NCBI GenBank assembly: GCA_951406725.2
Contig: OX597826.1
Location: 8,866,001 to 8,930,000, forward strand
Reading direction: 5' to 3'
DNA: 64,000 bases
DNA from: Octopus vulgaris
Lineage: Eukaryota
Position numbers and translations under genes: made by a program. The notes beneath the pieces were generated by a model that was not told the DNA's origin, did not search any database, and was given only the letters and a program-made list of their open reading frames with translations. Positions 13,431 through 40,750 of the stretch are shown piece by piece. Every line of letters begins with the position of its first letter. Position 1 is the stretch's first letter.

Positions 13431-14001
13431 AAAAAAAAGATTTAAAAAACGAATCTGTAGAACGCCATTGGCCATAGGGTTCCTGGGACCAGCGAGAAAA
13501 TTTCAGGATACGACGGGATAATTTGGGAATTCTAGAAAACAACTTTTAAGTTGGAAAATTCATTCTCATTATTCAAATTGCCTTCCACGACATTTATTTT
13601 CCTTAATATGGTTATCCTTTATGATTCCAATTCCCCTGAGATAGTTCTTCGTTACAAACTCCCTGACTTAAAGCGATCTAAATTTAAAAGTCCTTGAAAA
13701 ATTCAAACACAAGGTTAATAAGGTCAAGGTTATTTTACCTAATGCTTCGCTAATTTCCAGTATATTATTTCAACAGAAATATGGTAACAAGTATTGTGGA
13801 ATTAAAAGTACAATCCACGCGATTGGATTCTATCCAGTTTCCATGTTGACGCGATTTCACTCACTCTCTATGACATTTATCCTGCATGCCACGCAACGGG
13901 ATCGAACTTAGAATATTGTAGTTACGACGCAACCTTCAAAAGAATTGGACCACACAGAGACTGTGAGTGTATTTATGTGTATGTATATATGTGAATATGT
14001 A

Positions 14002-14093
<92 letters not shown>

Positions 14094-14094
<1 letters not shown>

Positions 14095-14790
14095 AAGAAA
14101 AATAAGTTGGCTAGCAGCAAGCTGTTTCGCCTCATACCGAAGGAATTAGAAATGGCAGTCAAAGACCGTTTTTTCCATTTCTATAAGTGGAGATTCCAAA
14201 AACGAAGGCCCTTGCGGCTCACATACACAAAACCGGAGTGGCAAATATACGAATTCAGTCACTTACCGTTAATAGCGAACACCGTGTTTCTGGATCACAA
14301 ACATATAAAAAAAGGGGAGTTTGAATTCCGTCATCAGCGCTATATTCGATAGCTTTATCAAATGCCACCAGCCCTCACTTCTGACCCAGCGACATCAGAT
14401 AGTGGGGGGAAGTGCGCAGATGTTAAAACCAAGTAACGACTGGGAACGTAAATTTTCCCTCCAAAATTCTGCCATGCGCGCCTTCTGGGTAATCGTAATG
14501 GAATGAGGAATCCACATGGTAATACAATAAAAATGGTAAATAATTTTCCTGTGGTTTTTCATGTAACCAACAATTATTTACCGGTAAATTTCGGTATGTA
14601 AATACGACAAAATAATTGTCAAGACCTTTGTAAGGTTCAGTATATAGTAAAGAAAAATAAGTTGGCTAGCAGCAAGCTGTTTCGCCTCATACCGAAGGAA
14701 TTAGAAATGGCAGTCAAAGACCGTTTTTTCCATTTCTATAAGTGGAGATTCCAAAAACGAAGGCCCTTGCGGCTCACATACACAAAACCG
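14094..14790 (-). mobile_element. Hammerhead-containing non-autonomous element (Penelope-derived/retrozyme-like), 555 bp monomer plus ~142 bp terminal direct repeat, in (TA)n
   Basis: 14094-14235 repeated identically at 14649-14790; (TA)n both sides; hammerhead at 14272-14343. Confidence 0.85.
14272..14343 (-). ncRNA. Type I hammerhead ribozyme (canonical core)
   Basis: Minus strand ATAGCG-CTGATGA-C-GGA..CAAAC..GTTTG..TCC-A-GAAA-CAC-G-GTG-TT/CGCTAT; perfect 6-bp stem I. Confidence 0.85.
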
Positions 14791-14960
14791 ATATATATAT
14801 ATATATATATTATATATATGTAATGATGTATGTATGTATATTGTATGTATACATGTATATATATATATATGTACACACACACACACACACATATATATAA
14901 ATATATATCTACATATATAAACTTATACATACGTGCACGCAGATACATAGTCCATGTGTA

Positions 14961-16161: not shown

Positions 16162-16398
16162 TGGATATTGGAAACACATGTGTTCACCAATGGAAACCAG
16201 GTGAATCAGAAAAGGAAGACCGACACCCCATGTTCTTTACAGAGGCTCCGTGACTTGTGGCGAGATCTCATCTACTTCGATCATTCGGTCGAGATCTCAC
16301 CACAAGTCACGGAGCCTCTGTAAAGAACATGAGGTGTCGGTCTTCCGTATCTGATTCACCGAGGTTTCATTGGTGAACACATGTGTTTCCAATATCCA
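16162..16398. mobile_element. Foldback/MITE-like hairpin element
   Basis: ~107 bp near-perfect inverted arms (TGGATATTGGAAACACATG...) with a 21 bp spacer. Confidence 0.8.
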
Positions 16399-38580: not shown

Positions 38581-39325
38581 AAATACCTATTTCTTTACTA
38601 CCCACAAGAGGCTAAACAAAGAGAGGACAAACGGATTAAGTCGATTATATCGACCCCAGAGCGTAACTGGTACTTATTTAATGGATGAAAGGCAAAGTCG
38701 ACCGCGGCGGAATTTGAACTCAGAACGTAACGGCAGGCGAAATACCTATTTCTTTACTACCCACAAGGGGCTAAACACAGAAGGGACAAACAAGGACAGA
38801 CAAACGGATTAAGTCGATTATATCGACCCCAGAGCGTAACTGGCTACTTAATTTTCGACCCCGAATGGATGAAAGGCAAAGTCGACCCCGGCAGAATTTG
38901 AACTCAGAACGTAACGGCAGAACGAAATACCTATTTCTTTACTACCCACAAAGGGCTAAACACAGAAGGGACAAACAAGGACAGACAAACGGATTAAGGC
39001 GATTACATCGACTCCAGAGCGTAACTGGTACTTATTTAATGGATGAAAGGCAAAGTCGACCTCGGCGGAATTTGAACTCAGAACGTAACGGCAGAAGAAA
39101 TACCTATTTCTTTACTACCCACAAGGGGCTAAACACAGAAGGGACAAACAAGGACAGACAAACGGATTAAGTCGATTACATCGACTCCAGAGCGTAACTG
39201 GCACTTATTTAATGGATGAAAGGCAAAGTCGACCTCGGCGGAATTTGAACTCAGAACGTAGCGGCAGACGAAATACCGCTAAGCATTTCGCCTGGCGTGC
39301 TAACGTTTCTGCCAGCCCGCCGCCT
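38581..39325 (-). repeat. Head-to-tail tandem array of SINE family B (4 units plus one head)
   Basis: Units begin AAATACC at 38581, 38740, 38925, 39098, 39271. Confidence 0.9.
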
Positions 39326-40448: not shown

Positions 40449-40497
<49 letters not shown>

Positions 40498-40502
<5 letters not shown>

Positions 40503-40750
40503 AAAAATGGTAAATAATTTTTCAGTGGTTTTTCATATAACCAACAATTATTTACCGGTAAAATTCCGGTATGTAAATATGACAAATTCATCGTCAGGAA
40601 CTTCTGGAAAGTTCAGTATATAGTGAAAATATATACTGAATCGCAGGGATCGTCGTATTTGGAAAATCCACTTATAGAAAATGGAAAAAACAGTCTTTGA
40701 CTGCCATTTCTAATCTCCTCCGGTATGCGGCGAAGGCAGCCTGCTGAGAT

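Follow-up and report, generated by a model that had tools for sequence, protein, structure and literature searches.

The window analysed here is the whole 64,000-nt stretch of DNA, and the element under study occupies 697 bp of it (14094-14790) between two TA tracts. As stated in the original prediction, made from the window sequence, 14094-14235 is identical to 14649-14790 (142 bp, spacing 555) and the ends are not the TG..CA of an LTR: the element ends AAAGAAA...AAACCG. The direct repeat grows to 150 bp with one mismatch once the common TATATAG is counted, and the GC content of the monomer is 40%. Monomer coordinates (m) are given as the window position minus 14093. The features were assigned as follows.

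13980..14091, no strand: flanking (TA)n of the target, RNA-3' side.
14086..14093, minus strand: S start site, the RNA 3' junction, with TATATAG common to the target; assigned by the 150-nt repeat with one mismatch and by the S end in 33/48 single-armed copies.
14094..14648, minus strand: full monomer of 555 nt; the RNA corresponds to the minus strand.
14272..14343, minus strand: predicted type I hammerhead, a variant of the type found in Penelope-like elements (PLEs).
14522..14640, minus strand: 'tail' of 119 nt, from the L start site (14522, ATACAAT) to the internal S site.
14641..14647, minus strand: the S site repeated internally as TATATAG, in which ATATAG is invariant in 11/11 aligned monomers.
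14649..14790, minus strand: second turn, 5'-truncated, 142 nt, the 'terminal redundancy'; assigned by the exact repeat and the variable 5' ends of relatives.
14791..14810, no strand: flanking (AT)n of the target, RNA-5' side.
40496..40746: two-armed fragment belonging to an older subfamily, its L-site arm at 40496-40635 and its inverted arm at 40642-40746; identity to the monomer is 86-87%.

With one plain S-primed arm, the window copy runs for 1.27 turns, and its 142-bp repeat is a truncated second turn, not an LTR. The identity of the repeat had been read as the mark of a recent insertion. A single reverse-transcription run over the same stretch twice would account for the identity of the two 142-bp copies, and by the rule of three that identity would limit divergence to no better than about <2%; youth is better seen in the nearest relatives, which differ from the window copy by 0.5%. 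The absence of a credible ORF was confirmed, the frames being short or starting in the TA tract. The longest frame across the unit begins inside the TA tract, its 85-aa part inside the unit gave no Pfam match at E<=1, and single-base indels disrupt it between subfamilies; a coding role for this plus-strand frame was rejected on the last two grounds. Elsewhere in the window, the hammerhead region is absent from the older copy at 40496-40746, an inverted repeat at 16162-16398 (108-nt arms, 93% complementary, 21-nt spacer) is MITE-like or a fold-back, and 38614-39277 contains a 173-bp unit repeated 3.8 times in tandem which resembles an abundant SINE-like repeat.

The window copy carries one hammerhead only, on the minus strand from 14343 to 14272. 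Stem I is formed by 14343-14338 with 14277-14272 (6 bp, ATAGCG/CGCTAT), followed by the core CUGAUGA (14337-14331), a long bulged stem II (14329-14292) and GAAA (14290-14287). Stem III (14287-14279) is a palindrome of the dimer type, ACAC-G-GUGU, closed by a loop of 1 nt, and cleavage is predicted after the GUU triplet, between 14278 and 14277. Stem II has one extra base on each side, including an extra A before GAAA. Of the 'intact canonical hammerhead' originally described, the single motif, the 6-bp stem I and the bulged long stem II stood, and the word canonical did not, given the GUU triplet, the stem III with its 1-nt loop and the extra bases of stem II. With Rfam, the window had no hammerhead match at gathering score, and around the element at E<=10 there was simple-repeat noise alone and no hammerhead; the isolated motif produced no active-core fold and folded no better than shuffles (z 0.35).

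The pairing was then examined in 20 variants, which were hand-picked to span the subfamilies and are related sequences, so that shuffle counts are no probabilities. Pairs are formed in 99.1% of 340 cells, against 31-43% in slid controls, and two-sided changes occur in 6/17 pairs, namely three in stem I, two in the distal part of stem II and one at core 3-8 (CG 9, UG 7, UA 4); a set of 11 sequences gave the same picture. The length of stem III varies among subfamilies with its palindromy kept, GUU is the commonest triplet with GUC in one subfamily, and sister subfamilies have a C4 core. On this pairing, the predicted hammerhead is more than a chance motif, a real but atypical variant of Penelope type. 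The GUU triplet, the 1-nt loop III, the C4 core of the sister subfamilies and the lack of a predicted active fold are features expected to weaken its cleavage. In the sections of PMC4209133 used here, PLE hammerheads are described as weakly cleaving, probably as dimers, and covariation of the core 3-8 pair is a trait of theirs. The family has in common with those variants the extra base between 9 and 10.1, G10.1-C11.1, the palindromic helix III, the long bulged helix II and the U3-A8 core covariation, and differs from them by a further invariant A before GAAA, a 6-bp helix I and GUU as the commonest triplet.

Many copies at 96-100% identity are present in the host assembly (G000, 2.8 Gb, 227 contigs). 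Exact patterns for the 3' half of the hammerhead, a 22-mer of the tail and a 26-mer of the young subfamily gave 481, 435 and 77 matches, respectively, and the reversed-pattern controls gave 0 each. Subfamilies have units of 546-555 nt with identity down to 83%. The sequence is present in 20 of the 24 public runs listed (9 studies, 4 organism labels), and a cyclic contig of 585 nt in X14 can be read equally as a tandem or as a circle. At least two hammerheads in one arm are found in 22/115 insertions. The longest array seen, about 7 tandem turns of the older subfamily, lies near a contig end (G000:C18:83923474-83927501); near a contig start (G000:C13:266791-301592), a two-armed insertion of 4.5 turns has another copy some 30 kb off, which is inverted and in part duplicated. 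A literature search, with supplements and Repbase outside its scope, returned no description of this 546-555-nt family.

For the analysis of the ends, 116 distinct insertions were kept after the removal of duplicates and of 11 loci cut by an edge or an N run. The sample was obtained by similarity and pattern searches and is not a random draw; one locus (L008), a segmental duplicate of another insertion, was dropped from the arm/cut-site and junction counts. Of the 48 single-armed insertions, 33 have the 3' end of the hammerhead strand at S (m545-555), 14 have it at L (m421-437) and 1 has it elsewhere. The two-armed insertions (68/116) are head-to-head with their 3' ends outward, and are divided into 42 L/S, 16 L/other, 9 S/other, 1 S/S and 0 L/L. 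Outer ends fall at L or S in 158/184 cases (47/48 single-armed, 111/136 two-armed), the two intervals together making up 5% of the monomer, and when both ends are fixed, 42/43 insertions use one site each (P 5e-12 versus independent choice). The two sites are 119 nt apart and are kept in a subfamily about 83% identical; S has a conserved TATATA match to the target, and L varies (ATACAAT, ATGCAAT, ATTCAAT or ATATAAT). On the hammerhead strand, it is the 3' ends that are fixed, and the 5' ends scatter over the whole monomer. The circular permutation of both start and end points that the original prediction had envisaged among genomic copies was not borne out, since the 3' ends are at two fixed sites and only the 5' ends vary. 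A TA run continues past the 3' end in 45/48 single-armed copies and past the 5' end in 28/48, and empty-site reconstruction gave a partial paralog in 1/38.

The arrangement of these insertions was compared with that of PLEs. The PLE footprint in the consulted parts of PMC8557442 and PMC3846280 consists of partial tandems, a truncated arm in inverse orientation, a tail on one side and insertion into microsatellites, and the family has partial tandems, 5' truncation, an inverted arm, a one-sided tail and a microsatellite target. The likeness extends to EN+ PLEs (Neptune clade) and to non-autonomous Chlamys such as MRC1, in which the same two sources describe LTR-mimicking partial tandems, 5' truncation, a truncated arm that is inverted, a tail restricted to one end and microsatellite targeting; the family differs from them in having no ORF and a tail of 119 nt as compared with the 30-40 bp given there. 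Purified protein of the Anolis Poseidon PLE, according to the parts of Frangieh et al. 2024 (PMC11167929) consulted, nicks DNA and primes and extends both strands in vitro, with two internal RNA start sites setting the tail and with ribozyme cleavage not needed; the two start sites, the priming of both strands and the dispensable ribozyme cut resemble the situation proposed here. The same parts report no strand difference in the use of the start sites and no homology to the target, whereas here the two arms nearly always start at different sites and S has its TATATA match to the target.

Frames with a reverse transcriptase plus a GIY-YIG domain at the C terminus are abundant in the genome, and many are intact at 781 aa. 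By our own reading of the CxxxxCxxC linker, as described in the part of PMC8557442 used, these 781-aa frames are Neptune-type. Scoring of 150 of 6136 candidates from the GIY-YIG search, together with 36 further stretches, gave about ten PLE lineages. Copies of the frames with reverse transcriptase and GIY-YIG likewise end in (TA)n with a short tail present or absent, and some have similar hammerhead variants (by eye). None of 66 GIY-YIG loci and 10 PLE-bearing flanks contained a PLE sharing sequence with the monomer (blastn, nhmmer); strong monomer matches near PLE loci were all separate non-coding insertions, and a degenerate motif near the S end matched further non-coding families only. PLE fragments adjoining retrozyme copies were considered as a partner and rejected, being separate neighbours in TA tracts. 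Since no PLE sharing monomer sequence was found, it is the footprint that points to the partner, and mobilisation by the Neptune-type PLEs of the genome, which the original prediction did not name, is likely. At two loci (L032:432-1338 and L245:1670-2500), retrozyme copies lie in the TA tract directly at a PLE 3' end, as shared or nested targets. For canonical PLEs, one ORF only has been described. At L164:768-2204 and L169:881-2317 (plus strand), a 479-aa open frame lies upstream of the dominant 781-aa PLE in another reading frame and overlaps the PLE start, and the tail runs into it.

At the level of sequence, the family falls under the definition of a metazoan non-LTR retrozyme: each unit has a type I hammerhead (variant), the head-to-tail unit is short and non-coding, and there are no true LTRs. 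As in the retrozymes covered by the consulted parts of PMC7229834 and 10.64898/2026.07.22.740005, where mobilisation by PLEs from circular RNA is a published hypothesis, the tandem unit is non-coding with one type I hammerhead, GC <50% and no LTR ends, it co-occurs with PLEs, and its copies are mostly dispersed monomers and dimers. The unit of 546-555 nt exceeds the 150-450 bp given in the part used of Cervera & de la Pena 2020 (PMC7229834) and lies inside the 51-972 bp given in that of Li, Clavereau & Pollet 2026. Unlike in the other metazoan non-LTR retrozymes of these sources, (TA)n targeting here masks any TSD, and no homologous pLTR partner was found here, as compared with 21/57 Xenopus families in the portion consulted of 10.64898/2026.07.22.740005. 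Two consecutive hammerheads, which define 'active' in the consulted text of Li et al. 2026, are absent from the window copy and present in the family (the 22/115 above). With its single hammerhead, the window copy cannot release a monomer; it is a monomer derivative and an ordinary dead-end insertion.

Taken at a probability of about 0.85, the window copy is a single-armed, 5'-truncated member of a non-coding 546-555-nt hammerhead family (metazoan non-LTR retrozyme), likely copied into (TA)n by a PLE reverse transcriptase-endonuclease. The family is new among metazoan non-LTR retrozymes and has a PLE insertion footprint, and as a parasite it is of a known kind. The central proposal of the original prediction, 1.25 turns of a circular or multimeric RNA with a hammerhead, reverse-transcribed into (TA)n, is supported, the copy measuring 1.27 turns. 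In the proposed course of events, the PLE protein would bind the RNA and nick (TA)n on both strands, and cDNA would be primed from each nick at one of the two internal sites, L (14522) or S (about 14647). With an RNA circle or an uncut multimer as template, copying would continue past the ribozyme site and often make more than one turn, and the arms would stop at variable points and then be joined; for the window copy, the S-primed arm alone is seen, with 1.27 turns. At an earlier stage, the ribozyme, probably weak and working as a dimer, would free monomers from copies with two hammerheads.

Three other origins were weighed for the repeats and the arms. The identical direct terminal repeats of this one copy could be taken as the 142-bp LTRs of a TRIM or another small LTR element, an origin that is scarcely conceivable when the repeat length differs in every copy, the copies range from less than one turn up to 4.5 turns, the arms are inverted without TG..CA and only the 3' ends are fixed. 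The TRIM with fixed ends that the original prediction had named as its counter-case was ruled out by the varying repeat length and 5' ends, and the fixed-length LTRs, TG..CA, 4-5 bp TSD and type III hammerhead by which a TRIM or an LTR retrozyme would be recognised were not found. It is very improbable that the repeat is an assembly artefact or a local slippage duplication; identical repeats within a microsatellite would suit such an origin, and it is opposed by the same head-to-tail overrun in 66 arms elsewhere and by the head-to-tail (555-back) junction in contigs of 4/4 public runs examined, the runs being not on record as RNA. For the inverted arms, fold-back self-priming on the first cDNA or on an antisense template, in place of two target-primed reactions, is an unlikely origin with some evidence in its favour. 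Fold-back has been proposed for PLEs from junction palindromes (PMC3846280, in the part used), both arm ends are <=12 nt apart at 9/67 junctions (about 3 expected, P 0.003), and one arm is nested in the other in 23/42 L/S copies; the 19/42 L/S copies without nesting are not makeable by fold-back, by which it was excluded as the sole route.

The form of the template bears on the two leading readings. Of 187 arms, 124 read through the ribozyme cut site, 71 are longer than one turn and 7 are longer than two turns. Stops at the cut site (m180-191) numbered 8 versus 4.3 expected (P 0.07), and 2 versus 2.2 in pattern-picked arms; a pile-up of 5' ends there, suggestive in the first 30 loci, was rejected as not significant overall. 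Since the arms pass the cut site without significant stops, the template would not mainly be a cut linear monomer. The pooled difference between the arms of one insertion is 1.3%, and in 26/48 no other sampled arm is closer; by this measure, both arms are of the same sub-lineage, which is not necessarily one molecule. In the L/S copies, the L arm passes S in 38/42 and the S arm passes L in 15/42, and on one circle such passage would need strand displacement. One circular 555-nt RNA per insertion, with a PLE dimer priming both nicked strands at the two fixed sites and copying round the circle by strand displacement, comes close to an even chance. If true, the circle with its dimer explains the one-sided PLE 'tail' together with the head-to-head arms, and the family is a countable genomic record of rolling-circle TPRT. 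A linear uncut multimer from a tandem master locus, in the same family and with the same enzyme, with no circle and a nearly inert ribozyme, is a serious contender at rather less than even odds. It agrees with unprocessed RNA as the dominant in vitro substrate (PMC11167929, in the part consulted), with the cut-site counts, with the tandems of 4.5 and about 7 turns and with a ribozyme that looks weak by modelling. A multimer has several L and S sites, from which L/L and S/S arms are expected, and 1/43 was seen; a dimeric protein holding both sites might account for the L/S pairing too. Against a tandem master locus, there was no cluster of more than 3 motif matches among the first 100 of the 481 matches listed, and against an inert ribozyme, the stems covary across subfamilies to about 83% identity. 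Folded as a circle, the hammerhead strand is stable in 3/4 monomers (z -5.3, -5.5, -4.5 and -1.5; 25 shuffles), which argues against a linear template; the corresponding values for the opposite strand were -2.2, -5.0, -3.5 and -2.2 (25 shuffles). Private variants common to all turns of their insertion (8, versus 88 in a single turn) argue weakly in the same direction, and they gave no signal of A-to-I editing fixed into the copies, with 1 A>G among the 8. Taken together, the template evidence modestly favours a circle over an uncut multimer.

The family adds counts on how retrozyme RNAs re-enter genomes, and it bears on why PLE insertions have inverted arms and a one-sided tail. With two start sites set well apart and several subfamilies side by side, it is well suited to experiments on circle versus linear templates and on two-strand priming with purified PLE protein. 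A sister family, more remote and about 553 nt long, was observed at L244, L255, L227 and L238, with fragments in L157, L171, L138 and L191; its core reads UUGAUGA/UUGAUAA, its triplet is GUC, it has a separate pair of ends about 100 nt apart, and a motif near the S end is in common. Beside the 5' end of the insertion at L005 lies an unbroken frame of 199 aa (minus strand, 534-1130) with a QACRG motif, which we take to be caspase-like, and on that side there is no TA tract.
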